Source: an uncultured Verrucomicrobiae bacterium
GTDB taxonomy: Bacteria > Verrucomicrobiota > Verrucomicrobiia > Palsa-1439
DNA: 64,000 bases
NCBI GenBank assembly: GCA_963812605.1
Contig: CAWEWF010000014.1
Span: forward strand, 36,418 to 100,417
Reading direction: 5' to 3'
Shown: positions 42,791-64,000 of the stretch, in pieces
Numbering within the stretch: position 1 is the first letter of the stretch
Layout: each line of letters opens with the position of its first letter
The notes under the pieces: model-generated
Seen by the model: the letters and a program-made list of their open reading frames with translations, nothing else
What the model was told of the DNA's origin: nothing
The model's database searches: none
Made by a program: the position numbers and the translations under genes

Positions 42791-42947
42791 ATTATAGGGC
42801 GTGGACTCCTTCGACCACGAAGCCACGAAGGACACGAAGATTTATGGATAGCATTATCCATAGCCGAGGGTGGCGAGGAGGGAAACGGGCGGCGGAACTG
42901 ACGAAAGCGGCTTGTGAATTGTAAAGCGGTGACACTCTAAACTTCGC

Positions 42948-44984: not shown

Positions 44985-45390
44985 AGGAAGTTCCTTAAAC
45001 TGGATGCTTCTTCACTCGAATCTCGCCCGACACTCGCCTCAGCAACAGCACGGTGCTGCATGCTGGAGTCTACCAAGCGTTTCGCCGTTCGAGCAAGCCT
45101 GGCGAGTATGGAGTTGCGGCAAAGGATCTAGTATTGGTTATCGGTTTACCCTCTTTTCGGTCAAATCGACCTCAAAACGCCAATGTTTACGAGCATTTCG
45201 TAGAAAAGCTTCCAAACCTTCCAAAGCTTCCAGAGTGCACGCATGCGATTTTGGGCGTTGGGGTAGAGTTGGCATGTGAGTTGTATGAAGAAGGTTTCCA
45301 GTCGCGGTATGACCGAGAGGACTGCCCACAACAACCAGACGGCGCGCGGGACGCACGCCCTACAATCGGACCCCAGGAAAGGATGTAGTT

Positions 45391-46332: not shown

Positions 46333-46416
46333 CGGGGCTTGAAAACATGTGTTTCTGCGAAACGAACCCATTTTGGGGGCGTACCGATGAGGTTTGGGAG
46401 AGTTCGCCTGCTTTTG

Positions 46417-46659
46417 CTACAGGCGCTTTTTGGCGAAGGATCGGCCTGATGCGGTTTTGAGGTAACGCTCAAAGTCCAAGGCCGATTGGCGATGGGTAAA
46501 CGCAATGCAAGTCTTGATACGCCAGGGACGAAACGCTCTCGTGTGAATGGACTTTCCGGAGTTGTGCTCGGCAAGTCGCGCCTTGAAGTCTTCAGTGAAG
46601 CCGGCATAGAAGCGGGTTGGGTCTTTTTCGCTGGCGAGGATGTAGACGTAGTAGAATTT
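46417..46659 (-). CDS. GIY-YIG nuclease-domain protein (short, URI-type)
   Basis: MKFYYVYILASEKDPTRFYAGFTEDFKARLAEHNSG is the GIY-YIG signature. About 81 aa from the internal ATG. Confidence 0.65.
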   Translation of the reverse strand, partial: KFYYVYILASEKDPTRFYAGFTEDFKARLAEHNSGKSIHTRAFRPWRIKTCIAFTHRQSALDFERYLKTASGRSFAKKRL

Positions 46660-46725
46660 CATGGCTTGCGCGGCTGCCCGCCTTCGCTTCGCTACGACGC
46701 GGCAATTTTCGCTCCGAGCGAAAAT

Positions 46726-46768
46726 TGGCGGAGGGGGCGAGATTCGAACTCGCGAGGCCAACATGACC
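46726..46768 (-). other. Partial tRNA gene, 3' part only (T-arm GCGAG-TTCGAAT-CTCGC, acceptor 3' strand CCCCTCC, discriminator G, encoded CCA); candidate att site remnant
   Basis: Minus-strand sequence …GGCCTCGCGAGTTCGAATCTCGCCCCCTCCGCCA. No complementary GGAGGGG 5' acceptor strand, D-arm or anticodon arm upstream, so it is not an intact tRNA. Confidence 0.55.
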
Positions 46769-46873
46769 GCACACAATGCAACTTTACTAGGAAATATGAC
46801 ACTATAGAACGCTATTGACAGGGGTGGACGTTATGATAATCTGTTATGACAAAACGAACAAAGATTATCCCAT

Positions 46874-48068
46874 ATGGCCAGCCTACACAAAGATCCGCAG
46901 GGGCGAAGCAAGTTTTGGTACTGCGCTTTCAGCGAATGGGACGCGGACGAACAACGTTGGCAGCGCCGGTTCCGGTCCACCAAGACTGCCAACAAAGAAC
47001 AGGCCCTTCAAATCTGCCGGACATGGGAGCAAGCGGCCAAGACTGCCCAGACAGGCCGACTGACACCCGACCGCGCGCGGGAAATCCTCGCCAACGGGCT
47101 GGAAGGAATTTTTCTCGCCAGCAATCGCGAGCCCATGAAGCGGTACACGGTCCGGGAGTGGGGGCAGCAATGGCTCGACAGCAAGTTGATCGAGAACACC
47201 CCGCGCACCCATGAGCGATATGCCGGCATCATCACCCGGTTTTATGAGCACCTCGGCGCGAAGGCTGACAGGGACATTGCCGCTGTGACGGCATCGGAGA
47301 TCACCGCCTTTCGGGACAAGCTGGCAAAAGAGCTTTCGATCAATACCGCCAACCTTGCCGTGAAGACTTTGCGTGTGTGTTTCGGTGCCGCCTACAGCAA
47401 TGACCTTATTACCAGCAATACCGCCGCGAAGGTAAAGAAGTTAAAACTGCCGCGCATGGGGCACCGCCGCGAGTTTAAGCCGGCGGAAATCCGCCTTCTA
47501 CTGCAGGCCGCCGGTGACAGTGAATGGCGCGGCATGATTCTGACCGCACTCTATTCCGGGCAACGGCTCGGTGATGTGTCACGGTTGCGGTGGGGGGACG
47601 TGCGGCTGGACACCCGCGAGATCGTCTTTCGCGTCAGTAAAACCAACGAAGTTCTGCCGTTGCCGATGGCGCGCCCGCTGTCCGACTATCTCGAAAGCTT
47701 CCCGTCGAGCGACGACGCCAACAGTTTCCTTTTTCCGAAAGCTGCCGCTTGTACCCGCACCGGGTATGTTGAGCAATCAGTTTTACAAGGTCATGGAACA
47801 AGCCGGGCTCGTACCGCAGCGGAAGAACGTCGACACTGGTAAAGGCCACCGCGAGCGTCGCACAGTCAGTTCCTTGTCCTTCCACAGTTTGCGTCATAGC
47901 TGTGTGACGTTTCTCAAAGCCGCCGGAGTCAGCGATGCCATCGCGCAAGCCATCGCCGGCCATGCGTCTAGTGCCGTCTCGCGGATTTACACCCACCTTG
48001 ACGTGGAAACCCTACGCGGCGCTGTCGCCAAACTGCCGGACGTGACGAAGGATGACGCAAAGCGTTGA
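46874..48068 (+). pseudogene. Phage-type tyrosine integrase, one frameshift near 47.73-47.76 kb in a T5 run (ORFs 46874-47842 and 47571-48068)
   Basis: N-terminal SAM-like/core-binding domain. The catalytic C-terminus HSLRHSCVTFL … GHAS … IYTH (R-H-R-Y family) sits in the second frame. Confidence 0.7.
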
Positions 48069-48180
48069 ACCCAGATTTCCCAGATTCGCTTCACAAGTCA
48101 ATGTTAGTGACATACAATGAAGCCGCATAAACAAAGGGTGTGATCGATGTTGAAGCGACAAAAAACGGAGAATCCAATGG

Positions 48181-49613
48181 GTGCAAGCTAACAAACAGGC
48201 TCTGCGGGTGACTTTCGATAGTCGTTTGAAGCTGGAGTTTCACGGTTCCAAGGTCACCTCCGATGCGGGCTTGCTGGCTTACCGGGAACTGGATGAGGCG
48301 CTGGGACTGACCGCCATGGTGAGTGACCTGCTGAATGATTGGCGCACGGGAAAGAACACGCAACACTCGATGGTGGCGCTGCATGCGGCAGTCGATTTTC
48401 AGCCGTCTGGCTGGATACGAGGACACCAATGACGCCGAACGGCTCTCGGTTGATCCCACCATGCGGCATGTGGTTGGCGGGCGAGCCACGGAACGCACGG
48501 CGGCTTCCACCAGCCAGATGGGTCGCTTCGAGACCGAGGTGTTGACGCAGCCGCGGAATCTGGCGGAGTTGACGAAGCTGTCGGGAATATGGATTGAGCG
48601 GCTGCGGGAACGCCAGCCGATGCGGGAACTGATCCTGGACATGGATAGTTCGGTGAGCGAAACCTATGGGGAGCAGGAAGGCACGGCCTACAACGGGCAT
48701 TTCGGCTGCACCTGCTACCACCCGCTGTTTTGCTTCAATCAGTTTGGCGATGTGGAAGCAGTCCCTGTTGCGGGAAGGCAACGTCCATAGCGCCAAGGAT
48801 TGGCTGAGCGTGCTGGAACCGGTGGTGGCACGCTATCGCGGCCAGAAGTTGCCGCTCTATTTCCGGGCGGATGCCGCCTTTGCCAACCCGGAGATTTATG
48901 AGTATCTGGAAGCCGAAGGTTACGGGTATGCCATCCGGCTGCCAGCCAATGATGTGTTGCTGCGGGAGATCGCGCCGCTGCTGACCCGTCCAGTGGGGCG
49001 TCCCTCGAACGCGCCGGTGTCTGGTATGCGGACTTTCAGTATCAGGCGAAGAGTTGGGATCGCGCCCGTCGGGTGGTGGCCAAGGTGGAATGGCACAAGG
49101 GGCGAATTGTTCCCTCGCGTCGGGTTCATCGTGACCAATCTGAGCCGGCCAGCCAAACGGGTGGTGCGGTTCTACAACCAGCGGGGGACGGCGGAGCAGT
49201 GGATCAAGGAAGGCAAGAACGCGGTGAAATGGACGCGGCTGTCCTGCCACGACTTTGTGGACAACCAGGTGCGGCTGCAACTGTTCGTGCTGGCGTACAA
49301 CCTGGGCAACTTCCTGCGTCAGGCGGTGCTGCCGCAGGTCGGTGCGTCACTGGACGTTGACGACGTTGCGGGAGAAACTGATCAAGATCGGGGCGAAGGT
49401 CGTGCGCCATTCCCGGCAGGTGATCTTCCAGATGGCGGAGGTGGCGGTTCCACGAGAGTTGTTCCGGGCTATTCTGGAAAGGATTGGATGGCTGAGATTG
49501 CCCATGCCGCTGCCCGGCTGATGCTCGCTGGGCGGCAAATGCGGGAAAGCAAAATGGCTGACGGCGATGCTTTGTCTGCGTTCGGTCGAAAATCGGTGCA
49601 GAACGCAATTTAG
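48181..49613 (+). mobile_element. IS1380-family-like DDE transposase gene, disrupted by at least two frameshifts (ORFs 48181-48432, 48335-48790, 48666-49613)
   Basis: VTSDAGLLAYRELDEALGLT N-terminus, GHFGCTCYHPLF, and RFYNQRGTAEQWIKEGK are recalled as IS1380-type transposase motifs; family call is by memory. Terminal inverted repeats could not be confirmed by eye. Confidence 0.55.
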
Positions 49614-49739
49614 AGCCGAAGGCATCGTCTCCGGAGCCTAGAAAAGGCTTGCTTGCAGTGTCAGGAGAGATAAAATGCGATCAATGAAACTGAATGGCCC
49701 GCGCTGATCGCGGGCCGTAGGTCATATGGGAAATGTAGG

Positions 49740-51743
49740 ATGAATACACACGGGCTTACAGACCGGCGTATTGGCATCGCAATTCTCTGCGCCTTGTTCT
49801 TCGCCTCCGCGCCGGCGCAGGCAACGCTGACCACGAATAGTTGGGGCAGTTTTTTCAGCGGCCCCTGGCAGGGCGGAAGTTTATGGTCCCTTGGTGTACC
49901 TCCTTCCAGCAGCCAGAGCATCGTCACGATCACCAATAGTTTCGTGACCGGAACCTCCAAGACCATCACCATCGACGGCACCACTGCGACGAATTTCCCG
50001 GCCACGATGACCATCAGCAATCTCGCCGTGCTGGGCTCACTGGCCCTCGGCAACGTGCCGCCGTTGGGCAACAATATTTTGGCGCTCAGCGGCACCTCGA
50101 CCTCGGCGCTGACCGTGCTCAATTCCCTCGTGGTCAGCAACGGCGGCATCATCTCCATCTCGAATTCCATTCTGAATACCGGAGGGAATGAACTCATCGG
50201 GGCCCTCGGCACCATGTTCCTGTCGAGCGGAACGAATAATACCGCGGACAACTTGGTCATCGGCGACGGCGTGAATGGCGCCGCGTTGTGGATGAACGGC
50301 GGCGCGTTGAACGCGGCGGCTCTCACCATCAACAACGGAGCGCTCCTCGTCCAATCCAACGGCACGGCAAATATTTACGGCGCGGAGTGCGTCGTATTCG
50401 GCAACTGGGCTTTGGCCGGTGGAACGCAGAATGGTACCCTGATCGTTGGAAATGGTGGCACGCCCGGTACCGCCACCATGACCGGCGGGCAACTGCTTGG
50501 CGGCCTCGGTATCAACCGCGGCACGATGGTGGTGTCCAATGGTCAGGTGAACCTTGCTCAATCCGACGTGGGTTCCCCCGCGAATTCTGATGGCACGTTG
50601 ACCATTGCGGGCGGGACAATTTCTTTGGAAACACTTCAGATTGGCGGCGGGACGGGAACACTTTGGATGACCGGCGGCAGTCTTCAGATTACCAACAACT
50701 ATCTGTACGACGGAACCGGCAACGGAGGTGCCTCCGGAACATTGATTCAATCCAACGGAACCATGGCGCTGTTTGGAGAACTTGTAGGCTCCCCATTCAT
50801 CGGCGGTCCTCCATCTGGCACCCTGACCGTCGCCGGCGGCGTCCATACGATCGGCGCCGGTGGATTGGCCGTGGGGTCTGCGGGAACCGGAACCTTCTGG
50901 TTGACGGGCGGACAAGTGATCGTCACCAATGGCTACACGTATCTCGGCTACGAGGGCTTTGCCACAATGACCGTCTCGAGCGGCACCTGGATGGCTCGCG
51001 ATGTTTATGTGGGTACCGATGATAGTGAAGGAACGCTGACCTTTCTGGGCGGCATCACGACAATCTCCTCCAATCTCACCTTGGGCGATTGCGGCGAGGG
51101 GTCTTTGGGCCACTTGTTTCTAAAAGATGGCTATCTGTTTATCACCAACGCCGCCCACAACGCCACGCTCAACGTCCGTAACGACGTGGTCTTGATCACG
51201 GGTGGTCACTTGATCGTGGACCGGGTCGTCATGACCAACGACTGCGGCCTGTTCATCCACGCCGGCGGCACTGTGAGCGTCGGCAGCGAGCTTCTCGATC
51301 CAAATCTGGACGCCGATAACGATGGCCTGCCAAACGGCTGGGAAATCGCCCACGGTCTCGACCCGCTCGACTCCAGTGGCGTCAATGGCGCCGACGGCGA
51401 TCCCGATGGCGACGGCTACAGCAACATGCAGGAATACCTCGCCGGCTCCGATCCGCAAAATCCTTTGTCCACCCCACTCAATCCCGGCGGCACTTTCGCC
51501 TTCACCTCAATCGTGCACACCGGAAACAATATCGTCCTAACATGGAATACCGTCGGCGGAACAACCAACCAGGTACAAGTTTCCCCCGGTAGTGTCGGGG
51601 GAAGCTACTCGACCAACGCCTTCACCAATCTCGGCGCGCAAATGCTCATCACCGGCAGCGGCGCCGTCATCACCAATTTCACCGACACCAACGGCGCCAC
51701 CAACAAACCCGCCCGTTACTATCGGATCCGCCTCGTACCATAA
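49740..51743 (+). CDS. Secreted autotransporter-associated beta-strand-repeat (PATR) protein with TSP3-like Ca-binding repeats and the shared C-terminal domain (…ARYYRIRLVP)
   Basis: Signal peptide. About 20 Gly-rich beta-strand repeats (GG.L.I.NG…). DADNDGLPNGWE … DPDGDGYSNMQEYLAGSDP. Confidence 0.8.
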   Translation: MNTHGLTDRRIGIAILCALFFASAPAQATLTTNSWGSFFSGPWQGGSLWSLGVPPSSSQSIVTITNSFVTGTSKTITIDGTTATNFPATMTISNLAVLGSLALGNVPPLGNNILALSGTSTSALTVLNSLVVSNGGIISISNSILNTGGNELIGALGTMFLSSGTNNTADNLVIGDGVNGAALWMNGGALNAAALTINNGALLVQSNGTANIYGAECVVFGNWALAGGTQNGTLIVGNGGTPGTATMTGGQLLGGLGINRGTMVVSNGQVNLAQSDVGSPANSDGTLTIAGGTISLETLQIGGGTGTLWMTGGSLQITNNYLYDGTGNGGASGTLIQSNGTMALFGELVGSPFIGGPPSGTLTVAGGVHTIGAGGLAVGSAGTGTFWLTGGQVIVTNGYTYLGYEGFATMTVSSGTWMARDVYVGTDDSEGTLTFLGGITTISSNLTLGDCGEGSLGHLFLKDGYLFITNAAHNATLNVRNDVVLITGGHLIVDRVVMTNDCGLFIHAGGTVSVGSELLDPNLDADNDGLPNGWEIAHGLDPLDSSGVNGADGDPDGDGYSNMQEYLAGSDPQNPLSTPLNPGGTFAFTSIVHTGNNIVLTWNTVGGTTNQVQVSPGSVGGSYSTNAFTNLGAQMLITGSGAVITNFTDTNGATNKPARYYRIRLVP

Positions 51744-51865
51744 CCCCTTCTGCCTCTCACATTCGCACGGGCCTCCGAAGAATCGAAAGCCCAACAGCCT
51801 GCCACCCAACTGACAAGGCTCGGTTGAAACCAAAGAAAGCCAGACGTAGTCGCAAACACGAGGCC

Positions 51866-52108
51866 ATGGCGCACGGTGGCAAACAACAATTGCAGGTGCC
51901 TTCGGAAATCGTGTTTGAAGTGTACAGGCCGAGGGAAGGCGGTTATGTGGCACGGGCAGTCGGGTATTCGATTTTCACTGAGGGCGACACACGCCCGCAG
52001 GTTGCACAGAACGTCAGGGCCGCAGTTTTTTGTTATTTCGGCGGGAAAGAGTTGTCACCAACACGAATCCGATTGCGTTTCATTTACCCAGCGGATGTTG
52101 ACGTATGA
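51866..52108 (+). CDS. HicB-like (UPF0150) antitoxin-fold protein
   Basis: EIVFEVYRPREGGYVARAVGYSIFTEGDTRPQVAQNVRAAVFCYF fits the HicB N-terminal domain pattern. ATGA overlap with the next gene. Confidence 0.45.
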   Translation: MAHGGKQQLQVPSEIVFEVYRPREGGYVARAVGYSIFTEGDTRPQVAQNVRAAVFCYFGGKELSPTRIRLRFIYPADVDV

Positions 52109-53103
52109 GCATATCCGCCAATGCTTCGGGAGTCGAGTTGGTCGAGCAGCTTCGCGCAGTCGGCTACGAGCGGATTGCCCGGAGCGACGGGCACTTCGTT
52201 CTGGACACAGACCGCAACGGCGCTCATCGGATTGTCCTACCTGATTGTGATCGACTATGCGAGCACACGGTGCGCTCAATTATGCAAGACGCAGGCTCTC
52301 ATGTGGGACGTGAGTCTTCTGATACATGGGAGGGTGCGAAACCGCCCCCAGGCGGCGGAAGCGTCGTGATCTACCGTGAAGGCGTCGGACAGGTCCGGCT
52401 GTGGTATGACGAGACCGGCAAATTGGAGAAAGAGGAGCCGGTCGAGCAACCCGTATCCCCAAGCCAAACCCAACGGGTGTGCCGTCCGCGTGACAAGAAA
52501 CTACAAGAGTGGCTTGGAATGATGGGCTATGCGTCCCTTTACGAATGGCCAATGCCAGAGTGGGCCTGGAACGCCTACGCAGAAATGCAGCGGATGTATC
52601 TTCCGGAACTGTGGAAGCGGTTTACGACGTGGGACGCATTCTTGAACGATCCCCTCCAGCAGGGACTACGGACTGGCTATCAATTGGCGCTGTGCGTGAC
52701 CACCATGGACAACGCGACGCTGCTGGACAGACGCGATCCGGAAGCTGCGATAGCGGCTAGAAAAGAGCGGCCAATCTACATTGAAAATGTCGAGCGAGTC
52801 TGCGAAGAATGGTCTCTTCCGCGCCAGCAGAAGTTCTTTAAGGGATTTACAATGGCACTCACCGAGGACGCCGTCTACTTTGAAACGGGCAAACCCACAG
52901 TTGACGCTGGCAGATTCGCAGTGCTGGGGTTCCTTCTCGACCATCGCGCTGAAGTGAAAGAAAAGTATATGAAGAAGCGCCAGACTATCGGTGACCTCTA
53001 CACTTGGGTGAGCGGTGATCTTGAATCCCGTTGTATGGAACTGAAAACGTTCCAGAATCTTTGCAGTAGAATTGGCCTTCGTCTGCGATCCCGCAAGCGA
53101 TAA
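52105..53103 (+). CDS. HicA-like (YcfA) N-terminal domain fused to a ~260-aa uncharacterised C-terminal domain
   Basis: LVEQLRAVGYERIARSDGHFVL … HRIVLPDCDRLCEHTVRSIMQDAG follows the HicA pattern (GSHh … vtvPhH … gtl.sIlkqAG). The remainder has no recognisable motif. Confidence 0.5.
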   Translation: MSISANASGVELVEQLRAVGYERIARSDGHFVLDTDRNGAHRIVLPDCDRLCEHTVRSIMQDAGSHVGRESSDTWEGAKPPPGGGSVVIYREGVGQVRLWYDETGKLEKEEPVEQPVSPSQTQRVCRPRDKKLQEWLGMMGYASLYEWPMPEWAWNAYAEMQRMYLPELWKRFTTWDAFLNDPLQQGLRTGYQLALCVTTMDNATLLDRRDPEAAIAARKERPIYIENVERVCEEWSLPRQQKFFKGFTMALTEDAVYFETGKPTVDAGRFAVLGFLLDHRAEVKEKYMKKRQTIGDLYTWVSGDLESRCMELKTFQNLCSRIGLRLRSRKR

Positions 53104-53220
53104 ACACCGCCCACATTGACGCGGCAGTCCGAAGTAGGAGTTTAGCCACCGCACTTTCCCGGCCCCACCCTCTTTCTGCCCGGGAAAACGACCGCTTGCA
53201 TAGGAGTACGGTCGCGTCCA

Positions 53221-53505
53221 ATGAAAGCCGATACTGTCACACCGCACACCGCCAGTGCGAATAAAACGGCGGCCCCGATTGCGCCCGGTGCGAGTGGCGC
53301 GCAGCCTGAATTTTGTAGGCCCGCGGATATGCCCCGGCTGTTCGGAATCGGGCGCACATACGCCTACCAACTCATCAACGAAGGGAAAATCAAATCTATC
53401 TCACTTCGGAAACGGGGTGCACGCACTGGTGTGCGTCTGATTTCTTGCGACTCCGTGCGGGAGTTCTTGGCGAGCGAAATGGAGAAGGGCGAGGAGAAGG
53501 TATGA
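53221..53505 (+). CDS. Xis/AlpA-like helix-turn-helix DNA-binding protein
   Basis: MPRLFGIGRTYAYQLINEGKIKSISLRKRGARTGVRLISCDSVREFL has HTH_17/excisionase-like features. The true start may be the ATG at 53326. Confidence 0.5.
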   Translation: MKADTVTPHTASANKTAAPIAPGASGAQPEFCRPADMPRLFGIGRTYAYQLINEGKIKSISLRKRGARTGVRLISCDSVREFLASEMEKGEEKV

Positions 53506-53984
53506 AGCAGCAAGGGAAACCGGTTCGGCATTTGGACGACTTGTCGTTGGAGGAGTTGCAGGGCTACGCCGCACGAATGTCCGAATTGGAACCCTCTCAG
53601 CAGGGAGCGTTACGTGGAGAAGGTGGCTAAACACAGAGGGTTCTCTATCATATTCCGCGCGTTACAACGGATCGACGAGTGTTACGACCCCGACGAGATT
53701 CGGTTTCCCTGGGCTCTTTTCGGAAAGGTGATCAGGGATGTGGCGAACGGGCGTGACGGGAGTTGAGGGACAAATTTTCACCGGCCAAGTTCCACGAGGC
53801 AACATTTCACGGGCCTATTTCCATCTAGCGATTCGGTACCCGTCCGCGTTTCTGGCTCGACACCCTATAGCCGCCCCCCGCTGGAATCAAGTTCATCAAG
53901 AAGGCAGGCCGGTGATGGGCTGTCAAGGCCGCGCTCACATATTCCTTGAATATTGGACGGCATTCGTCCATATTTCACGGTGCC

Positions 53985-55136
53985 ATGAAGATTAGCCGAC
54001 TGGAGTTGAAGCACCGGGTGGAGCAGGGATTAAAAACCTTCCCTGTCACGGCGCTCTTGGGGCCGCGGCAGAGCGGCAAGACCACGCTTGCCCGCGAGAT
54101 CGCTGGAAAGAAAGGCCGATACTTCGATCTCGAAAATCCCCGTGACCAAGCGCGACTGACACAGGCGCAATCCGTCCTTGAGGAGTTGCGCGGCTTGGTC
54201 GTACTGGACGAAATACAACGCCGACCCGATTTGATGCCGTTGCTGCGGGTGCTGGCGGATCGCCGTCCATTGCCCGCTCGGTTTCTGCTGCTCGGCAGTG
54301 CTTCGCCCGATTTAATGAAACATTCATCGGAGTCGCTAGCGGGCCGGATTCACTTCGTGGATATGAGCGGGTTCAGTCTACTGGAAGTCGGCGCAATCCA
54401 GCAACGCAAGCTGTGGGTGCGCGGCGGCTTCCCGGACTCGTTCCTGGCCCGAAACGATGCCGATAGTCTGGCATGGCGCGATGATTTTATCCGCACGTTT
54501 CTGGAGCGCGACCTGCCGCTGCTCGGAGTTCACATTCCGCCGGAGACGTTACGGCGGTTTTGGACGATGCTGGCGCATTATCACGGGCAAATCTGGAATG
54601 CTTCGGAGTTGGGCAACTCCCTCGGTGTGGCGCACCATGCCACGCGCCGCTACCTGGACGCCTTGGTGGGAGCCTATGTGGTGCGGCAATTGCAACCGTG
54701 GTTTGAGAACGTCGGCAAGCGCGTGGTCAAATCGCCGAAGGTCTATATCCGTGACAGCGGGCTGCTTCACGCCCTGCTCGGCATTCCGGATTGGACAAGT
54801 TTGCAAGCGCACCCGAAGCTCGGCGCATCGTGGGAAGGCTTCGCGTTGGAGCAGGTCTTGGCGTGGGCAGGCGAACGCAATGCCTATTTCTGGGCCACGC
54901 ACGGTGGCGCGGAGTTGGATTTGATGGTGACGCTCGGTGGCAAGCGGTGGGGCTTCGAGTTCAAGTGCTCCGACACGCCGGCGCTGACCAAGTCCATGAT
55001 GATTGCCTTGGAAGACCTGAAATTGAAGAAGTTGTGGGTCGTTTACCCCGGCAAGGAGTCCTATCCGCTGCATGACCGTGTTGAGTGCATTGGCCTAGGT
55101 GACTTGGAGAAAGCCCGGCGAGCGAGCGGGGGCTAA
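53985..55136 (+). CDS. AAA+ ATPase with DUF4143 C-terminal domain (COG1373-like)
   Basis: Walker A GPRQSGKTT, Walker B LVVLDEIQ, conserved C-terminal domain pattern. Confidence 0.7.
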   Translation: MKISRLELKHRVEQGLKTFPVTALLGPRQSGKTTLAREIAGKKGRYFDLENPRDQARLTQAQSVLEELRGLVVLDEIQRRPDLMPLLRVLADRRPLPARFLLLGSASPDLMKHSSESLAGRIHFVDMSGFSLLEVGAIQQRKLWVRGGFPDSFLARNDADSLAWRDDFIRTFLERDLPLLGVHIPPETLRRFWTMLAHYHGQIWNASELGNSLGVAHHATRRYLDALVGAYVVRQLQPWFENVGKRVVKSPKVYIRDSGLLHALLGIPDWTSLQAHPKLGASWEGFALEQVLAWAGERNAYFWATHGGAELDLMVTLGGKRWGFEFKCSDTPALTKSMMIALEDLKLKKLWVVYPGKESYPLHDRVECIGLGDLEKARRASGG

Positions 55137-55610
55137 GATGCAGGCGGGAAAGCCATTTGAAGGCTTCTGATTAGACTGGGACGTATAGTTAAAGCCATAC
55201 TTGAACTGGATCGCCTAAATCAAGCTACAGCCAAGACAATATATGTCCGGACAATTCGGGCAGGAAGGCGGGCGGTTTATCCAAACGCTGCCGCAGCCGA
55301 GACCAACGCCCGCCGCACAAGTCGCCGCACAGTTCGAGGATCAGGAAAACCGCCAGTAGGACAGGCTATTGCGTGACATTAGCGGCACTTTCACATACCC
55401 AAACCCACCGCTGCCTGATCTCAAGGTGCTTGGCATCATTGTTGTCTATCCGTCGCGATGTCGATATGAAGTCCTATTACAAGCTGCTAGTGACAAAGTT
55501 CGCCATTGTTGGCGGGCTAGGTGAATTGCACTATCATCGTGTGATTATTCTTGCTGATACCGGGACATAGCGTTCACCTGGTCTTGGCTCACGTGCGGCA
55601 CGCGTTGCCG

Positions 55611-56321
55611 TCATGGGTCGTAGCGAACATTCCGTTTTTTTACTTGGCCGATAGCGAGGGTCTCCACGTGTCCATCGGTGAAAAGGAAGTTGGCGGCTGT
55701 ATTCGCCCGCTGCCGCCAGCGAATAAAGCCGGCACTGCTACCGGTATTAACGTCGTCAACATTCGGCCCGGGGGCAATAGGATCGTCATTGTCTGAAGCG
55801 CCCGCAACATATTGCTGGTAGATACATTGAACGGAGTAGGCTGTCGACAGGGCGTTCCCGCTCCACGCCTGGCAGCCATCCATGACGAGAATGGTTTCAC
55901 TGGGGCGACTCAAGCGGGAGCGTCGATAGAGGCCAGTGGATCGGGTATCCGGCACGAGCATAGGATGGGCGGAATAGTCAAGGTGCCCGATGGTCGTGAG
56001 ACCGTTTGGGCACTTGAACACTTTACTGTAATCGCTAGTGGTCGCGTATGTTCCCCCGGCTTTTGAGAGGTACGGTTGAATCAACAGCGTCCAATCGGTA
56101 GTGCCGGTGTAACCAGCCGGGAAGTAATCGTCGTGATCGTCGGCATACATCAAGGTCGCTAGGCCAATCTGGCGCAGGTTGGCAACTCCGGAAGCCGTCC
56201 GGGCCGTCCGGCGCGGTCCCAGCGCCGGTAAGAGCATCCCAGCCAATATGCCAATGATGGCTATGACGACCAGGAGTTCGATCAACGTGAATGCCTTTCG
56301 GCTGTTAGCGAACATTCTCAT
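55611..56321 (-). CDS. Prepilin-type N-terminal cleavage/methylation domain + DUF1559 protein (type II secretion pseudopilin-like)
   Basis: [25 protein letters not shown] followed by a DUF1559 body ending in the H-x-G motif region FLFTDGHVE. Confidence 0.8.
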
Positions 56322-56469
56322 CGGATCCTTCCATGAAGGAAGGCATCGGCCAACGGCAGACATGAAAAGTGGGCGCAACCACTCGTTGTTCACCGAGTCG
56401 TGAACGTGGGACTTTGTGCCTGTTGTTTGTTTGCCCATAGTGGTTGCGCCTGAACAAATCGGCTTCTTA

Positions 56470-57963
56470 CTACGGCACCAGCACGCGAACGCGGTAGTAG
56501 CGCGACGGTTTATTCGTCGCCCCGCCCAGATCCACCATATTGGTAAGGGTGCCAAGCCCCACACCGCCCATGAGGACGTTCGTCACGCCAGTGCTTGCGA
56601 AGTTGTTACTGTTGTAGCTGCCGTTGGCCGTGCCCACAGTGAACTCCAGCACGTTGGTGCGGCTCCCCAACGGTGGCATGCGGCTGCTATCGCCGCTGGC
56701 TCCCAGGTAACTCACAAAGACGTTCGTGCCGCCGTTCGTCGCAGCGATGCTAATGATGTGAACGTATGCCGCAGCATTGGTGGGATTGAATCCCGCCAGG
56801 AACTGGTTGGTGTTGCTCATCCCTTTGCCAAACGGATCCGCGCCCGGTCCACTGAATGCTGGATTGGTCAGTTCACCGGACGTGAAATACTGGTTCTGCC
56901 AGACTGCAAATGGATCCGTCCCCAGCGGCTGAAACGCGGCATCATCAAAATACACGGATCCACTGCTGTACGCGACGTTCTTGAACAGTAAGGTATACCG
57001 GGATAACATCGTGTTCGGGGGTGCGGTGGCAGTCAATACCAGTTGTGTGTACACATTCAGCGTTAGATTGTTCTGGTTGACGTCGACCTCCTGCGCAGCC
57101 AGCAGACCATTGGTCGTGTCCTCAAACTCAATTTTCAAGGTCGCGGCATTGTTGGTGCCGATAGGGTCGGATGACAGGCTCTGTACCCACGCCGTTGCCA
57201 TCCAGGCCTGTCCCGCCGTCGCGAGGACATCCTGATACGCGCCGGAGTAGTTCGGGTCGGCATTGAATCCGCCAAACATCTTGAGGTCCTGCGTTCCGGT
57301 GTGTGAATTGCCCGAGTTACGCAGAACATTGGGGATGACGTTATTGAAGAAAACCCAGTTGAGGGCATTTGTATCTCCGAACTCAAAACCTGGATTCTCC
57401 AATTGCGTCGATGCAAACTCCGCATCATCAAAATACACGGAACCGCTGTTGAATGCGACGTTCTTAAACACTAAGGCATACCGGGCATACATCGTGTTCG
57501 GGGGTGCGGTGGCAGTCAATACCAGTTGTGTGTATACATTCAGCGTTAGATTGTTCTGGTTGACGTCGACCTCCTGCGCAGCCAGGAAACCGTTGGTCGC
57601 GTCATGAAACTCAATTTTCAAGGTCGCGATATTGTTGGTGCCCATAGGGTCGGATGACAGGCTCTTGACGAACACCGTTGCCTTCCACGTGTCTCCCGCC
57701 GTCGCGAGGACGTCCTGATACGCGCCGGAGTAGTTCGGGTCAGCGTTGAATCCGCCAAACACCTTGAGGTCCTCCGTTCCGGTGCGGGAATTGCCAAAGT
57801 CACGCTGAACATTGGGGATGACGTTATTGAAGAAAACCCAGTAAGAGGCATTTGAATCTCCGTACTCAAAGCTTGCGTTCTGGAGTTGGGCCGGGCTCGA
57901 TGTTGCGAAAGCGGCGTACACGAGAAGACCAAAACCGTAGCCAATCCACTTGCTGTGCGAATT
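56470..57963 (-). CDS. Secreted protein with two tandem CBM_4_9-like carbohydrate-binding modules and the shared C-terminal domain (…[12 protein letters not shown])
   Basis: Signal peptide [26 protein letters not shown]. Two ~153-aa modules about 80% identical. Shared C-terminal domain. Confidence 0.75.
56941..57873. repeat. Tandem direct duplication, 2 x ~470 bp, inside the CBM gene; copies include >100-bp identical stretches
   Basis: For example, ccgggataacatcgtgttcgggggtgcggtggcagtcaataccagttgtgtgta… occurs at ~57000 and ~57480. Confidence 0.8.
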
Positions 57964-57986
57964 CATAAAGCTTATCCCTTCAGAAC

Positions 57987-58000
57987 TAAGTGTTACGCAT
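57987..58000. promoter_or_regulatory. Candidate LacI-family operator half-palindrome TGTTACGCATAACA; second inverted copy at 58193-58206
   Basis: 14-bp site with palindromic arms TGTTA/TAACA. Two copies lie in the AT-rich divergent region between the CBM gene and the LacI gene. A TTGACA-17 bp-TATGCG sigma70-like element sits at ~58171-58205. Confidence 0.35.
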
Positions 58001-58553
58001 AACATGTCACAACCAATACTTCTTGTCAACAACATTTGAAGCCAGACCCACGAGCCGGAAAGGCGGTCATCGTTACAAAAAGCGCTATTTTATTGAAAAA
58101 TGCGCAAAAATGATCGGCAAATTTTGTTGTAGTTGCATCTGTTTTCATTGGCGGGGCTTCCACGAGTGGCTGTTGACAATTCAAAAAATATATGTTATGC
58201 GTAACTGGTGGAAAGTGAAGGCGCGTTGCACGCGGTTGGATGGGTTCCAAGAGTCGGTCTTTGCCCAAACAATTCGTCGCAGTCCCGTTGGGTGGGTGAT
58301 GAGGTTGTGACGTGAACGTGATTACTCGTATTGCACTGACCTTCATGACTGTGGGTGTGGCTTTCGTCACGCTGTTTAACCCACAGCAAGACTGCAAGCG
58401 ATTTTAGCATTGGTATATTGATATATGGATACCTTCAATTTCATCACGGCGCGCGGGATCTCTGACTCTTCGAAAAAGCCCGTTGACAAGGCAGAGACGG
58501 CGAAGCTACAAGGGCTCGCGTATTTGGGGAGCTGCGTGAAACGAACCGTAACA

Positions 58554-59574
58554 ATGAACGACATTGCCCAGAAAACGGGTTTATCGGCGATGACCGTCTC
58601 CCGAGTCCTCGCTGGCAAGAAATGGGTATCGAAGTCTACCCAGGATCGGGTTCTTCAAGTCGCGAAAGAACTCGACTATCGCATGAACTCGCTGCCCCGC
58701 CAATTGCGGACCAATCGTAGCGAGCTAATTGGAGTGATCGCTCCTTTTAGCGGATTCGTCACGAGCTATTATTTTGGGCTGATCCTGTGCGGGATGAACC
58801 ACGCTCTGGATGGTACCCACTACCACTTGACTTTCTATGACAGCACATCCGGAAACTTGGACACGGTGGCGAAATGCCCGGAGCTTCTGTCGCGAAGGAC
58901 GGGTTGACGGGTTGATTGTTGTGGATCCGACCGGTCGTGAGGACTTCTCGAAAACCTTTGTCAACCTGGGCATGCCTATGGTGGTCGTAGGTGCTTCGTA
59001 CGGTAATCAGCGGATTAGTTACATCGATATGGACAATTACCAGGGCGCCGTGCTTGCCACTGAGCATCTAATTGCTCTGGGACATCGCCGGATCGGCTTT
59101 TGCGGTGGAATTGTTGAGCACGTCGATGCGATAGAACGCGAACGGGCGTTCCGCAAGACAATGCGCAGGCATGGCTTGCCGGTGATCGAGAAATGGGTTC
59201 TTCACTGCGACTTTGAAATGCGTAAAGCGCTGCATGCGGGACTAAAGTTGCTCGATACCCGCGATCGCCCCACCGGCATTTTCTCCGCAAATGACGTTAT
59301 GGCTTTTGGTTTGATTGACGCTGCAAGGATTCTTGGACTGGCTGTGCCAAGCGATTTGTCCGTGGCTGGATTCGATGACATTGATGACGCTGCAGCATTT
59401 CTACCGCCACTGACTACGGTGGGCCAGCCGATTCAGGAAATTGGCCGCACGGCGGTGGCCTATCTTCTGGGGGCCATTGGCAACCCCCGTCCTCCCATCC
59501 TCCACCAGAGACTACCTGCGCAACTTTTCATACGTGCGTCGACCGCGGCGCCGCCCAAGACCGGCGGTTCGTGA
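58554..59574 (+). pseudogene. LacI-family transcriptional regulator, one frameshift near 58.88-58.90 kb (ORFs 58425-58907 and 58837-59574)
   Basis: HTH MNDIAQKTGLSAMTVSRVL in the first frame. Periplasmic-binding-fold core (…GLIVVDP … GFDDI …) in the second frame. Confidence 0.7.
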
Positions 59575-59881
59575 GCCCTTCACTCAAAGGTTTATGCTGA
59601 TGAAGCTTGATATCGATTCTTCAACGGGATCGCGACCGGCAAGACGATATCTTTGTACTGTAATTGGCTTCACAATGATTTGTTTTCATGGGTGCACGAA
59701 TCGATTAGACATACCCGCAGGTTCCACCGTGAGCACGTCATCGGGATCGAATGTTCAAACGATCAGCGTGTCCCCTTTTATCAAGTCGTTCAGAAGTCCA
59801 CCGGCTATTTCTTCCAGCAGGGTACGAATCTGTTCTTGTCGACAGGCGTCTGCTCTGTGAATCCTGCAGAGTGGTCACCGG

Positions 59882-61606
59882 GTGCCGGCGGAGTCCATCC
59901 TGAAGAAGGCACAAGGTTCCTACGATGCCTTGCCGCGGTTCGGTGGCAATACCCAGCAGTGGGCTGTAGCCACGGTGGATCGGATTCGCTCATGGGGCTT
60001 CAACACCGCTGCGGCTTGGTGCGATGAGGAGATCTACAAGCAACCGATTCCATGCGCGCGCGTAATCTGGTTCGGCAACGATTCGCCGAGTGGCAACCGC
60101 CTTGTGGATGTGTTCAGCGCCGATTACGCGGCGCTGATTGAGGGCACCGCCGCAAAAGATGTCGAGCCGCACCGAAACGATGCATGGTTGATCGGGTATT
60201 TTATAAATAACGAACTGCCGTGGTACGGTGAATTCGGCTGGGCAACCGATCCTGAGAAGTCGTTGTTTAACCAATACTTCGCATTGCCCCCGGGCGCGCC
60301 AGGGCGACGCGAACTGTTTCGTTTTTTGCACGAACGCTACAGCTCCGTCGAGAAGCTGAAAGCGGATTGGAATACCAGCGCTGCCGACTGGGAAGAGTTG
60401 GAGAAAGAAGCGCACCTCACCGGCACGACGCTTACAGCTCATCGCGTGAAGTTTTCCTGGGCCGGCCGCGTGGCGGAACGTTACTTCGCGTTATGCGCGG
60501 AGGCCATCCGCCGCCACGATCCGAATCATCTGATTCTTGGCTGCCGATTTGCAACCAAACCGCCGCGTTCTGTTGTCGAGGCGATCGGCAACTACGCCGA
60601 TGTCGTCAGTATCAATATGTATTCTAAGAGCGGCGATCTGAACTTGGAATACTTGCGTAACGTGTATGCGCTCACACGTAAGCCCATCATGATTACAGAG
60701 TTCTCCTGGCGCGGGATGCAGAACCGTTCTGGCGATGCGAACACGGGCGGCGCGGATGTGACCGTCCAGACTCAGCAGGAGAGGGCGGATCACTATCGAC
60801 GTTACGTCTCGCACCTGCTGCAGGAGCCTTACATAGTCGGCATGCATTGGTTCCAATATGTGGATCAACCGCCGGCTGGCCGTTATCTCGACGGTGAGAA
60901 TTCCAATTATGGCATCGTTGATATCCATGACGAGCCCTATGAGGAACTGACCGGCGCGATGCAGCAAACCAATGCGCGTCTACCATCGCTTCGAGAGGGA
61001 CGAGTGGGGACGGTTCCCGTCGCATTCGACGAGAGATCATGGAACGAATTGATGCCGATCCACGTCGCCGCAGGCAAGCTCGCTCAGCCGGTAATATTAG
61101 CAGCCGCAACGTCGAAAGCACCTCTGTCTTTGTTTGAATTGCATGCCGACAGTTCGCAGGGGAATCAAGGGGCATGGGAACGCGCTCCCGATGCCTGGAT
61201 TTTCCATTATCAATCTGCTCGCGGGTGGGGGGTGCACGGTGACATACCACTTGAGGAGATCCTGCCCGCAGGTGCTGCCAACGTCGAAGTCGAGCTTCAA
61301 GCGCCATCTGGTTTGCAAATGCAAGTGTTCCTCCAAGAGACCGGGGATGGCCCGACAGGTCTACAAGTGTATCAAGGCAAGAACGGTGCCGACGGTGAAT
61401 CATTCGAGTTGCCACAATTCGCTGCCACGGGTACACGTCAGGTCGTACGCTTCAACTTGAACGATTGTGTGCGTCGGGTTTACTGGGGTAACCAGGGGGG
61501 CAATCTAACAGTAGATACACAGGGACTCCGCAGCCTGAGTATCTATCTCCATGCCGGACAGGGATCAGGCGACGTACGCATCTATGCCGTTAGCTTTACA
61601 AGTTGA
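59882..61606 (+). CDS. Glycoside hydrolase, TIM-barrel (clan GH-A-like); N-terminus probably truncated or frameshifted
   Basis: WGFNT…, ITEFSW and GMHWFQYVDQ strand-end motifs are typical of GH-A retaining hydrolases. A lipoprotein-like signal (…MICFHGC) sits upstream at ~59590 in the same frame but is separated by a stop. Confidence 0.55.
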   Translation: MPAESILKKAQGSYDALPRFGGNTQQWAVATVDRIRSWGFNTAAAWCDEEIYKQPIPCARVIWFGNDSPSGNRLVDVFSADYAALIEGTAAKDVEPHRNDAWLIGYFINNELPWYGEFGWATDPEKSLFNQYFALPPGAPGRRELFRFLHERYSSVEKLKADWNTSAADWEELEKEAHLTGTTLTAHRVKFSWAGRVAERYFALCAEAIRRHDPNHLILGCRFATKPPRSVVEAIGNYADVVSINMYSKSGDLNLEYLRNVYALTRKPIMITEFSWRGMQNRSGDANTGGADVTVQTQQERADHYRRYVSHLLQEPYIVGMHWFQYVDQPPAGRYLDGENSNYGIVDIHDEPYEELTGAMQQTNARLPSLREGRVGTVPVAFDERSWNELMPIHVAAGKLAQPVILAAATSKAPLSLFELHADSSQGNQGAWERAPDAWIFHYQSARGWGVHGDIPLEEILPAGAANVEVELQAPSGLQMQVFLQETGDGPTGLQVYQGKNGADGESFELPQFAATGTRQVVRFNLNDCVRRVYWGNQGGNLTVDTQGLRSLSIYLHAGQGSGDVRIYAVSFTS

Positions 61607-61760
61607 GGTAACACACGTATCAGACTTTGGATCAGTATCGCGGGGATTGCCTTAAATCCCAAACTGGACTGGAGGCGAGACATGCCAAGGCGCGATGAGA
61701 ACGACTAAACCAACGGCCCGCACTTGCCGCGCAGGTTTACCGGAGAACTCGTCAACGAAA

Positions 61761-62417
61761 CTACACGCGACGCCGCTTGGCGAACGCGACAAGACCCAGC
61801 AGACCCGTCAGCGCCAGCGCGACGGTGCTCGGCTCGGGAACCAGCGTCTGGTCATCGAAGTAAACGGTGACCGGTGTGGCATCAAGGACGAGATCAAACA
61901 CCTGTATGGACGCCGTGCCCGCCGGAGCAGTAGCCGTTACTGACAGTGGCACCCAAACACCCGCCACGGCATTGGTGCCGTTGATCTCATTGCCGAGCTC
62001 GGCGTTTCCTGGCGACGTCTCGGCAGTACCGAGATTACTCCCCGTGCCAGCGGGTCCAGACCAGTAGGTAATCTGCAAGGCGCCCCAAGTGTTGACGTTG
62101 GTGCCGGGGACTGTTGGCGTGAGGCCAAATGCCGTCATGGTGAAAATCTGACCAGCACTCGCCGGGAACGTTTGATAAGCGCCTGGGACGGTGAAACCTC
62201 CCGGGCCCGCCAACTTGTTTGCATTTGTTCCGGAATGCGCGAAGTCGGTTGAAAACACGCCGCCGTTAAAGAACGTCCAACCGCCAACACCGTTGCCGGA
62301 GGGGCTGGTGACCGACCCTTCAGAACCTGGATCTACGAGAAGATTGGCCCTACTCGTTGTGGACATAGTCAGTGTGCAGACGGCGACGCAGACCAGTAGA
62401 ATACTAACTCGCTTCAT
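61761..62417 (-). CDS. PEP-CTERM sorting-domain protein (secreted, exosortase substrate)
   Basis: Signal peptide. C-terminal VPEPSTVALALTGLLGLVAFAKRRRV is the PEP motif plus TM plus basic tail. Confidence 0.85.
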   Translation of the reverse strand: MKRVSILLVCVAVCTLTMSTTSRANLLVDPGSEGSVTSPSGNGVGGWTFFNGGVFSTDFAHSGTNANKLAGPGGFTVPGAYQTFPASAGQIFTMTAFGLTPTVPGTNVNTWGALQITYWSGPAGTGSNLGTAETSPGNAELGNEINGTNAVAGVWVPLSVTATAPAGTASIQVFDLVLDATPVTVYFDDQTLVPEPSTVALALTGLLGLVAFAKRRRV

Positions 62418-62648
62418 AACCTTATCTCCCTTGGGTTTTACTAACCCTAACTATACTCGCTTGATGCAAATCATTGCAGTTTCTTCGAAATATGTCAAGC
62501 GCATATTTAGAAGCAAATGGGAACCCGTGGGTACATCATGACCCCCCTGTGGTGAAGTTGAAGGTGATGAGTATGAGGCGGCTGCGGGATGGCCAGCCGC
62601 ATACGTCAATTCACAGCATGTGTGAGATGGGAGCGAGGACGCTCCACT

Positions 62649-64000
62649 CTACGATGAGCCTCTACTGATCGGGGTGATACTGATCAAGGCTACGAAAGGT
62701 TCGGCACGGTCAAGATCGGCATACCGTCTGGGTTGCATGTGGACTGTGGCGAGTTCATTTTCCCGGAGCAAATCGGCCAGTCGACCGAGACGCCAACCCA
62801 AAATCATCACGTCGGCGTTGGAGAAGGCGAGCGCAAGTTTTTGCGGCGGAGCGTTCTTATCTTGCCCCGCGTCCGGGTTGGGTTCCAGGGTGTAATCAAT
62901 CAACTGGTTGGTGTGAAAGCCACGCCGGCGCTCCTCGTCGACATGGAACTCGATGCAGGCGCAATACTTGACGGAGGTTGTATAGCAGTCGTCTTTGGTG
63001 GGGTGCATGGGGTGATTGAGGGTTGAATGTTCAGACACCAATGCCGCGAGAGTGGCCGATGCTTTCAGGCGGGGTGATGCCCCGACGCAGCTTGCGGCGG
63101 GCGGACTGCTCTTGCTGCAGAGCTTCCTTGACCGTGCGAGATCGTTTGAGGCCGCTGGTTCGTTTGACGGAGTCGGCCGTTTGACGGAGTCAGCCTGTTT
63201 TATGGACTCAGCTTGTTTGATGGACTCGGTTTGCTCAAACTTGGTCGTGACAGTTTCCTTTTGCTCAATGACGGACCGTTCGCGAAGCCATCGCTGCACA
63301 TCTTCGGCCACCTGTGCGAGCCGTTGCACCGGAGATAAACGCGTGGCGCGGAAAGCTCGCGGCGACTGACGCATCGGGCGCACCGTGCGAAAATCTTGGT
63401 GCACCGCGCTCGCCGGGGTGCCGATATCCTGCTCTTGCTGCGGTTGTCGCAGGAAACCGAGTTTGGCCAGGTCATCGCGCAGGCCTTGGAGTTCGACCGC
63501 AGCCTTGCGTTCGTGCGAATCGGTCACGCGACGCGCGAGCAGTTCGGCATCATCGGTGAACACATGAACACGCTTGCGCCCGCGCGAAATGGAAACGTAG
63601 AACTGTTCACGGTTCACCGCGCCGAACGAACGCGACGATGCGACCAAAAGCACGTCATCGACGGTCTTGCTCTGTGATGAGTGTGAGGTTACGGCGTAGC
63701 CGTGGGTGAAGGTGTTGAATGTGCCAGGCAGCACCCGGCCATCGGTGAGACTGATACGGCCACCGCTGATCTCCCGAACCTGAACACGCTCACCGTTGAT
63801 GAACTCTTTGCCATGATTAGCTTGCAACAATAGCCAATCGCCAGCAGCGACTTTCAACTCGCGGGACACGCCCACGTCGAACGAGGCGGCGGCACCGGCC
63901 GGGATAAAATCCACTTCCATTCCATCCGGACGGCGAACGCGCAGTCCGTTTTCGAGAACGGCTCGGATTTCGACCGTCTCGCCCCGATCAAAGTCGCGCG
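62649..64000 (-). CDS. C-terminal part of an SF1 helicase/relaxase-like protein (RecD/TraA/TrwC-type motif VI), runs off window end; low-complexity repeat-containing tail
   Basis: HGYAVTSHSSQSKTVDDVLLV … NREQFYVSISRGRKRVHVF matches helicase motif VI and the downstream region. The frame stays open to position 64000. Confidence 0.55.
   Translation of the reverse strand, partial: RDFDRGETVEIRAVLENGLRVRRPDGMEVDFIPAGAAASFDVGVSRELKVAAGDWLLLQANHGKEFINGERVQVREISGGRISLTDGRVLPGTFNTFTHGYAVTSHSSQSKTVDDVLLVASSRSFGAVNREQFYVSISRGRKRVHVFTDDAELLARRVTDSHERKAAVELQGLRDDLAKLGFLRQPQQEQDIGTPASAVHQDFRTVRPMRQSPRAFRATRLSPVQRLAQVAEDVQRWLRERSVIEQKETVTTKFEQTESIKQAESIKQADSVKRPTPSNEPAASNDLARSRKLCSKSSPPAASCVGASPRLKASATLAALVSEHSTLNHPMHPTKDDCYTTSVKYCACIEFHVDEERRRGFHTNQLIDYTLEPNPDAGQDKNAPPQKLALAFSNADVMILGWRLGRLADLLRENELATVHMQPRRYADLDRAEPFVALISITPISRGSS

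Follow-up and report, generated by a model that had tools for sequence, protein, structure and literature searches.

Elements that integrate at tRNA genes (tDNAs) carry a fragment of the tDNA in their attP site; on integration the gene is restored and the fragment originally present is displaced (PMC4383910). In the resulting islands, the regenerated tDNA and the displaced 3' fragment mark the two ends, with the fragment downstream of the tDNA (PMC4383910). A further described class, the canonical integrative mobilizable elements (IMEs), have an integration/excision module and their own relaxase, lack mating-pore genes, and are small (PMC5704250). Note that, according to a 2017 review, no characterised canonical IME then used a relaxase of the MobF or MobH type (PMC5704250). 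Here we describe the right-hand part, positions 46726-64000, of a 64,000-nucleotide stretch of contig CAWEWF010000014.1 (the whole stretch is called the window). We conclude that this part very probably consists of the integrase-proximal junction, and about four-fifths, of an approximately 21-kb IME inserted in the 3' end of a tRNA-Ser(GGA) gene. The genome is probably that of a member of the Verrucomicrobiota, the phylum to which the names on close homologues point.

The features of the junction, placed by alignments, repeat searches and Pfam, with the hairpin read directly in the sequence, are these.

46705-46725, minus strand: hairpin ATTTTCGC-TCGGA-GCGAAAAT, directly 3' of the CCA, on the chromosomal B' side
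46726-46768, minus strand: displaced tRNA-Ser 3' fragment, an attR-type junction
46726-46756, minus strand: att core of 31 nt, CTCGCGAGTTCGAATCTCGCCCCCTCCGCCA, the exact repeat common to the fragment and the intact tRNA-Ser(GGA) in relatives
46769-46873, plus strand: P arm between the core and the integrase gene (int), with three direct TATGAYA repeats at 46795, 46832 and 46845
46874-48068, plus strand: tyrosine integrase with Pfam Phage_integrase and SAM-like domains, 397 aa after frame correction

The initial annotation had reported a 43-nt tRNA 3' segment with no 5' half, some 100 bp from a phage-type integrase. Each of these points holds. The 43-nt segment ends in CCA, and the integrase ATG, on the opposite strand, lies 105 bp from it. 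An alignment to complete tRNA-Ser genes shows tRNA similarity that begins in the variable arm (GGTC-ATGTT-GGCC) and continues over the T arm, acceptor 3' strand and discriminator G up to the CCA. Upstream of the 43 nt (5' in the tRNA sense) the same alignment finds no tRNA resemblance. ARAGORN, a check that the annotation had proposed, detects no tRNA gene in the whole window. With Rfam nothing reaches the gathering score; at a lenient threshold the sole match is to the tRNA/tmRNA clan, truncated at its 5' end (E=0.0032). The proposed search for a direct repeat gave a single occurrence, at 46726-46759 on the minus strand, of the 34-mer GGCCTCGCGAGTTCGAATCTCGCCCCCTCCGCCA. There is no second copy in the window at up to 3 mismatches, where 0 would be expected by chance, and no copy of the 24-mer core besides the fragment at the same tolerance. 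Exact matches to the 34-mer in 185,579 reference genomes are found only at the 3' ends of complete tRNA-Ser genes. Since the tRNA reads from right to left, the fragment forms the left end of the island, in agreement with the initial annotation.

The second copy of the repeat is found in the islands of relatives. These are loci on metagenome contigs (L numbers), which were found via homologous proteins (P numbers). The frame-corrected integrase is 95% identical to the intact metagenomic integrase P0001, without gaps, over all 397 aa. P0001 is encoded on four contigs (L003-L006), each with the window's chromosomal neighbours (BtpA and two ABC transporters) and the same fragment, approximately 120 bp before int. 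No tRNA is present within 10 kb in L003-L006. Two further integrases, P0005 and P0010 (72% identity), sit in islands with both ends visible (L014 and L016; 9.9 and 3.55 kb respectively). In these, a core of 26-31 nt occurs twice in direct orientation: once as the fragment beside int and once as the 3' end of an intact tRNA-Ser(GGA) gene at the far end. For L016 the two copies are at 9859-9884 and 13409-13434. In both islands a Sua5 gene and a purU-like gene follow the tRNA. A search with the L016 Sua5 then led to an orthologue, P0266, on the very contig that carries L003 (k141_21307, 117.5 kb), in a locus, L018, that overlaps L003. A search for relaxase homologues did not have this contig among the matches listed. 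On k141_21307 the fragment (L003 position 9853) and an intact tRNA-Ser(GGA) gene (L018 positions 11315-11404) are 20.7 kb apart, and the tRNA is again followed by Sua5 and the purU-like gene. The exact repeat is the 31-nt core, identical in the window's fragment, and the base preceding it differs. This single-base difference in the intact tRNA gene of the relatives, immediately 5' of the core, is why a scan of metagenome contigs with the 34-mer had returned only fragments, plus one unrelated tRNA.

Hence, every relative readable to both ends has a fragment beside int and an intact tRNA gene, and in L014, L016 and the joined L003 and L018 the intact tDNA lies upstream of the fragment, in the same orientation and on the same replicon. 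Read from these relatives, the integration target is tRNA-Ser(GGA). A TGA anticodon, suggested by two matches of the 34-mer to tRNA-Ser(TGA) of the candidate phyla radiation in the reference genomes, was considered and corrected to GGA via the true relatives. These findings bear out the proposal, in the initial annotation, of a tRNA-targeting integrative element whose intact tRNA and second att copy were expected beyond the window. They also agree with the islands collected by Islander (PMC4383910), which share the tyrosine integrase, the 3' tDNA fragment downstream of a regenerated tRNA gene, and variable cargo. The identity block, from the T-stem region to the CCA, corresponds to the 'J' subsite class (combined T-loop/junction) of that work. 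The differences are that Islander islands have both att sites and an intact integrase, whereas here the second att is outside the window and int is frameshifted, and that the host is from an uncultured, probable Verrucomicrobiota lineage that is not in that database.

The complete element on k141_21307 allows the unseen end of the window's copy to be predicted. From the fragment, it contains int, a 94-aa gene, a 332-aa gene, a gene for a HTH_17 protein and Eco57I-like restriction-modification cargo. After the cargo come a DUF4143 ATPase gene, small genes, a 117-aa gene, a 919-aa relaxase-helicase, a 128-aa gene, a 189-aa gene, a second HTH_17 gene and tRNA-Ser(GGA). The window matches L003 and L018 in the same order: DNA identity is 91-92% for 46675-48073 and 51823-53488, 93% for 53874-55281, and 91.5% for 62642-64000. 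Because collinearity extends to the last base of the window, the island should be approximately 21 kb long, and we infer that the 3' end of the intact tRNA-Ser(GGA) gene of this genome lies about 4.0 kb past position 64000. The flanking chromosome, with BtpA and the ABC transporters, is only 77% identical to that of the relative at the DNA level. The backbone of the element is 91-93% identical, a contrast that points to horizontal spread.

The point at which identity changes is the CCA. Compared with L003, the sequence to the right is at least 95% identical and, to the left, the terminators have diverged. We read the hairpin at 46705-46725 as the tRNA gene's probable native terminator; at the same place in L003 the hairpin is a different one, with compensating changes. 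The variable-arm-like part of the fragment (46757-46768), which is outside the exact repeat, belongs to the element arm. The direct repeat of L016 (9830-9884 and 13380-13434), and likewise that of L014, takes in the terminator hairpin as well and reaches approximately 29 nt beyond the CCA, with 2-3 mismatches. In the window and in L003, what follows the fragment bears no relation to what follows the intact tRNA. The tRNA end and terminator carried by the element may thus have been captured from an L016-like host.

The P arm is also conserved. It is at least 95% identical in L003 and L006, and still recognisable in L008. Three of the seven TATGAYA sites in the window fall within these 105 bp, where 0.01 would be expected. 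The repeats may be arm-type integrase sites, the int promoter, or both.

We propose the following route of integration and transfer. The attP of the circular element would reproduce the final 31 nt of the tRNA, namely its T arm, acceptor 3' strand and CCA, and would include a terminator. The tyrosine integrase would recombine this attP with the chromosomal tRNA gene, with the crossover presumably in the T-arm region. The tRNA gene would thus be rebuilt from element DNA at the far junction, and the original tRNA 3' end displaced to the int-proximal junction with its native terminator behind it. Excision would use int together with an HTH_17 protein. Mobilization would occur in trans, through a borrowed type IV secretion system (T4SS), using the element's MOBF relaxase.

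The relaxase gene and its partner occupy the right end of the window.

62649-63011, minus strand: conserved 119-aa gene
63012-64000, minus strand: C-terminal ~330 codons of a MOBF (TrwC-type) relaxase/SF1B helicase, in a frame open to the window end

A relaxase/SF1-helicase-like C-terminus had been noted here, and matches to UvrD_C_2 and to TraA_Ti/TraI/RecD support that assignment. The window contains only the C-terminus of the helicase; the relaxase domain falls beyond 64000. In the 919-aa orthologue encoded by L018, to which the window part has 91.5% DNA identity, the whole protein can be assessed. It scores 198.6 bits with NCBIfam MobF (cut-off 100), 165.2 with relax_trwC (cut-off 145.5), and 1.5e-71 with Pfam TrwC. 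Like TrwC of R388 and TraI of F, this orthologue has an N-terminal TrwC domain followed by AAA_30, TraI_hel_assoc_N and UvrD_C_2 helicase domains. Unlike TraI, the proteins of this type are shorter (~920-1000 aa), chromosomal, borne by an element, and without a partner T4SS. A second difference from TrwC and TraI is that a conserved gene of 117-128 aa, of unknown function, always follows. The 119-aa gene of the window is the local example: it has 72-82% amino acid identity to separate 117-128-aa genes in L012, L013, L017 and L018, and a gene of this type follows the relaxase-helicase in every copy. In the window, one nucleotide is deleted near 63179 in comparison with two relatives, which fuses the relaxase tail in frame to the 119-aa gene and gives a 449-aa open reading frame (ORF). 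The deletion is within an 18-nt tandem-repeat region encoding SIKQAE repeats. In L018 the relaxase tail is interrupted by an in-frame stop codon instead.

Families of the T4SS and its coupling protein are absent from 46.7-64 kb and from the other genes of the complete 20.7-kb relative. Neither in the window part nor in any related copy read did we find a VirB4-type ATPase, a VirD4-type coupling protein or mating-pore genes. Integration and excision functions of the element's own would be provided by the frameshifted int and the HTH_17 protein. Judged by gene content, the element is thus very probably an IME and not a conjugative element, since the complete relative is without type IV secretion genes. 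The suggestion that the element is 'possibly conjugative' should therefore be replaced by mobilizable. In its integration/excision module, its predicted relaxase, its lack of mating-pore genes and its size (3.5-21 kb in this family), it resembles the canonical IMEs (PMC5704250). It differs in that the relaxase is of the MOBF/TrwC type, and its mobilization is a prediction.

The remaining backbone genes are listed below.

51824-52108, plus strand: 94-aa accessory gene, which follows int in the uninterrupted relative; 95% amino acid identity to L003
52105-53103, plus strand: 332-aa accessory gene; 87% amino acid identity to L003
53329-53505, plus strand: small DNA-binding protein of the HTH_17 (MerR/AlpA/excisionase) type; Pfam 27-28 bits, cut-off 27
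53874-55281, plus strand: conserved backbone block with an AAA_14+DUF4143 ATPase (53946-55136, Pfam); 93% DNA identity to L018 and L017

The HTH_17 protein, earlier described as AlpA/Xis-like, is 89% identical to its counterpart in L003. Paralogues, at 58-65% identity, adjoin the tRNA end of L018 and L014. It is a candidate recombination directionality factor or regulator. The DUF4143 ATPase, also recognised earlier, shares 97% amino acid identity across three contigs (window, L018 and L017) and is more conserved than the integrase. It also matches a candidate defence family of PADLOC, PDC-S01 (2.4e-80). The 94-aa and 332-aa genes overlap by 4 bp, have 91% DNA identity to L003, and are found only in L003-type copies, with neither gene in L014 or L016. 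A weak similarity to HicA covers the first 72 residues of the 332-aa protein (PF07927, E=0.012, over the full profile length, below the cut-off). Any reading of the two genes as a HicA/HicB pair is weakly supported. For backbone genes of unknown function, PHROGs and PADLOC returned nothing.

Two insertions separate the window's copy from the backbone of the relatives. The first resembles the transposition units of ISEcp1, a member of the IS1380 family that mobilises adjacent DNA in a one-ended manner, via an imperfect alternative right inverted repeat (IRR), and makes 5-bp target duplications (PMC12589106 and references therein). The parts of the unit in the window, located exactly at the int stop codon, are as follows.

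48070-51822, plus strand: ISEcp1-like transposition unit of the IS1380 family, 3.75 kb
48070-49740, plus strand: insertion sequence (IS) proper, with left inverted repeat (IRL) CCCAGATTTCCCAGAT and cognate IRR at 49725-49740
about 48154-49521, plus strand: transposase pseudogene (DDE_Tnp_1_4) with 5 frameshifts
49741-51822, plus strand: passenger DNA, carrying a 667-aa TSP3-repeat gene (49740-51743)

The unit was delimited by its inverted repeats, its target duplication and the empty site in L003. The duplication, GTTGAA, is at 48064-48069 and 51823-51828, either side of the unit. L003 has the empty site, AAGCGTTGAAACC, and lacks all of 48070-51822. The IRL and IRR match at 13 of 16 positions, the IRR being right behind the transposase gene, and the far end of the unit resembles the IRL weakly (8/13, with a 1-nt offset). 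As the initial annotation had stated, the transposase is a decayed IS1380-like one. After five frame corrections it matches DDE_Tnp_1_4 from positions 3 to 432 of 435 (E=1e-133) and contains no stop codon. The locus has the transposase, terminal inverted repeats and short target duplication of an IS1380/ISEcp1-like unit. Shared with ISEcp1 units are also the cognate IRR after the transposase, a duplication that flanks the IS together with 2.1 kb of downstream DNA, and a weak far end. The duplication, good internal IRR and 2.1-kb passenger are the pattern of ISEcp1-type one-ended transposition. Four points set the unit apart: a duplication that reads 6 bp (or 5 bp extended by a chance match), a passenger gene for a surface-repeat protein in place of a resistance gene, a host outside the proteobacteria, and a transposase that is now a pseudogene. 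The passenger protein, previously called a PATR adhesin, matches bacterial TSP3 repeats and not PATR. The A of its ATG is the last base of the IS proper (49740). Its codon use is host-like, which fits capture from the same genome.

The second insertion is a cargo slot specific to the window.

55282-62641: window-specific cargo slot of 7.4 kb (Pfam), with no counterpart in L018 or L019
55611-56564, minus strand: DUF1559/N-methyl protein (Pfam)
56470-58035, minus strand: 521-aa secreted-looking repeat protein
58425-59574, plus strand: LacI-family regulator with one frameshift (Pfam)
59882-61606, plus strand: glycoside hydrolase (GH)-like protein of 574 aa (Pfam)
61761-62417, minus strand: PEP-CTERM protein (Pfam/NCBIfam)

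The same slot is filled by 2.2 kb of other genes in L018 and by 0.5 kb in L019. Pfam and NCBIfam agree with the earlier naming of the DUF1559, PEP-CTERM, LacI and GH-like genes, which had been regarded as native-looking and interleaved with the element. By our reading, such genes have two sources: the IS1380 transposition unit and the variable cargo slot. The element had accordingly been regarded as possibly 'old or mosaic'. Mosaic is apt, given the IS unit and the cargo slot; old is only partly so, for identity of the backbone with copies from other hosts is 91-97%, yet the window's copy has several frameshifts. The cargo slot has the lowest GC content and the most atypical tetranucleotides of the window. 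A comparison of composition, as had been advised, shows that 46.7-64 kb departs from the core at 1-42.7 kb (tetranucleotide r of 0.73-0.89 versus 0.92-0.96).

We next consider how far the window's copy is intact. It has eight frameshift lesions: one in int, five in the transposase, one in the LacI gene and one in the relaxase tail. The integrase is consequently split over two frames (46874-47842 and 47571-48068). DNA alignment to L003 locates this lesion to one extra G in the run 47762-47764, upstream of the catalytic HxxR and Tyr. The long genes in 1-42.7 kb look intact, for example the 2123-aa ORF, the M29 peptidase, BtpA, both ABC transporters and a radical SAM protein. Hence, the eight lesions concentrate in 17 kb of the island, and general frameshifting of the assembly was rejected as the cause of the split genes; it stays a rival for single lesions. 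With eight frameshifts, one of them in int, the window's copy is probably immobilised.

It is possible, though we doubt it, that the copy is still functional and that the assembly consensus is in error at the frameshifts of int, the transposase, LacI and the relaxase tail. The int lesion is a single extra G in a GG run, and the corrected transposase, free of stop codons, covers the whole Pfam profile. Furthermore, the assemblies of several related contigs have fragmented housekeeping genes (ClpB in L017 and an ABC transporter in L016). Against this, the long genes of 1-42.7 kb are spared while eight lesions fall within 17 kb, and the relaxase-tail deletion is not in a homopolymer.

It is unlikely that the fragment has been orphaned, with no cognate intact tRNA nearby, through loss or displacement of the element's far end or of the 5' part of the tRNA by a rearrangement, for example one mediated by an IS. 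An IS1380 element does reside within the island, and the copy is degraded. However, on either side of each window-specific insertion the backbone has the order and orientation of the intact relative, and the intact target duplication of the IS unit speaks against an IS-mediated deletion there. We give still less credence to a self-transmissible integrative conjugative element (ICE) with T4SS genes beyond 64000. In its favour are the relaxase and the unseen right end. Against this, the window is collinear to its last base with the complete 20.7-kb relative, which has only ~4 kb left before the tRNA, taken up by the rest of the relaxase, the 128-aa and 189-aa genes and HTH_17, and no copy has a VirB4 or VirD4-type family. 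A prophage or phage satellite at the tRNA gene, to which the phage-type integrase and excisionase-like HTH gene might point, is scarcely credible, since capsid, terminase, tail and lysis families are absent from the window part and the complete relatives (Pfam, PHROGs), PHROGs is empty for the unknown genes, and a MOBF relaxase is present instead.

Some observations weigh against a tRNA-Ser(GGA) IME, or against parts of that reading. The far junction of the window's copy is beyond the window, and its second att copy is predicted, not seen. The frameshift in int makes current activity doubtful, and the HTH_17 assignment stands at the Pfam threshold. No excised circle, empty attB in a near-identical host, origin of transfer (oriT) or helper T4SS was observed. 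Finally, the chromosomal side of the junction, 42742-46674, is likewise compositionally atypical, so composition alone cannot define the island.

This 4-kb segment, with a low GC content of 0.50-0.53, is missing from L003-L006. Its products are a CAP12/Pycsar-type TIR domain fused to a response-regulator receiver (42948-43835, minus strand; PADLOC PDC-S35, 5.7e-46), a histidine kinase (44214-44984, minus strand), an unknown protein of 313 aa and, nearest the fragment, a GIY-YIG protein (46417-46662, minus strand). The GIY-YIG gene adjoins the fragment in L008 too. We regard the segment as a possible defence islet, or as what is left of an earlier insertion at this hotspot. Further left, the 2123-aa ORF (4697-11068, minus strand) matches an alpha-amylase catalytic domain at residues 33-165 only; its remaining ~1950 residues have no family match.

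Two other loci were read in the course of this work. L022, which encodes P0253, was examined for an empty attB. It has one tRNA-Ser(GGA) with different neighbours, and was not informative. GCATAAC repeats, as in the element arms of L014 and L016, are found directly downstream of this intact tRNA (11323-11420), and Pfam calls no integrase in the 10 kb on that side. The repeats may be a remnant or part of a different element. L012 (1491-3403) was examined as a possible analogue: the gene of a 526-aa integrase there lies directly against the 5' end of an intact tRNA-Tyr gene, in an island that also has a TrwC relaxase-helicase and the 128-aa partner gene. Inspection by eye showed no matching tRNA fragment between the two.

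What the element means can be stated at two levels. For the window's genome, the DNA from 46.7 to ~68 kb would be annotated as mobile, which accounts for its pseudogenes and odd mix of genes, and the position of the tRNA-Ser(GGA) gene and island end is precisely predicted. At the level of the family, the case is evenly balanced. The copies may represent a family of small MOBF (TrwC) IMEs, currently spreading among soil and peat Verrucomicrobiota (core genes ~77-84% identical) and always integrating at tRNA-Ser(GGA). Such a family would have a conserved 119-aa relaxase partner and exchangeable cargo slots, with restriction-modification in one host and a glycan/secreted-protein cluster here. To this would be added ISEcp1-style capture of a host surface-protein gene outside the Proteobacteria. 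If so, a relaxase class little documented for IMEs would be at work in a phylum about whose conjugative biology hardly anything is known. The absence of MobF among the characterised IMEs of the 2017 review gives the family modest curiosity value; the rest is textbook, and the island challenges no current concept. For a poorly studied phylum, it would supply a recurrent mobile element with a defined att site, backbone and cargo slots, which could help to trace horizontal transfer in soil metagenomes or to start the development of genetic tools.

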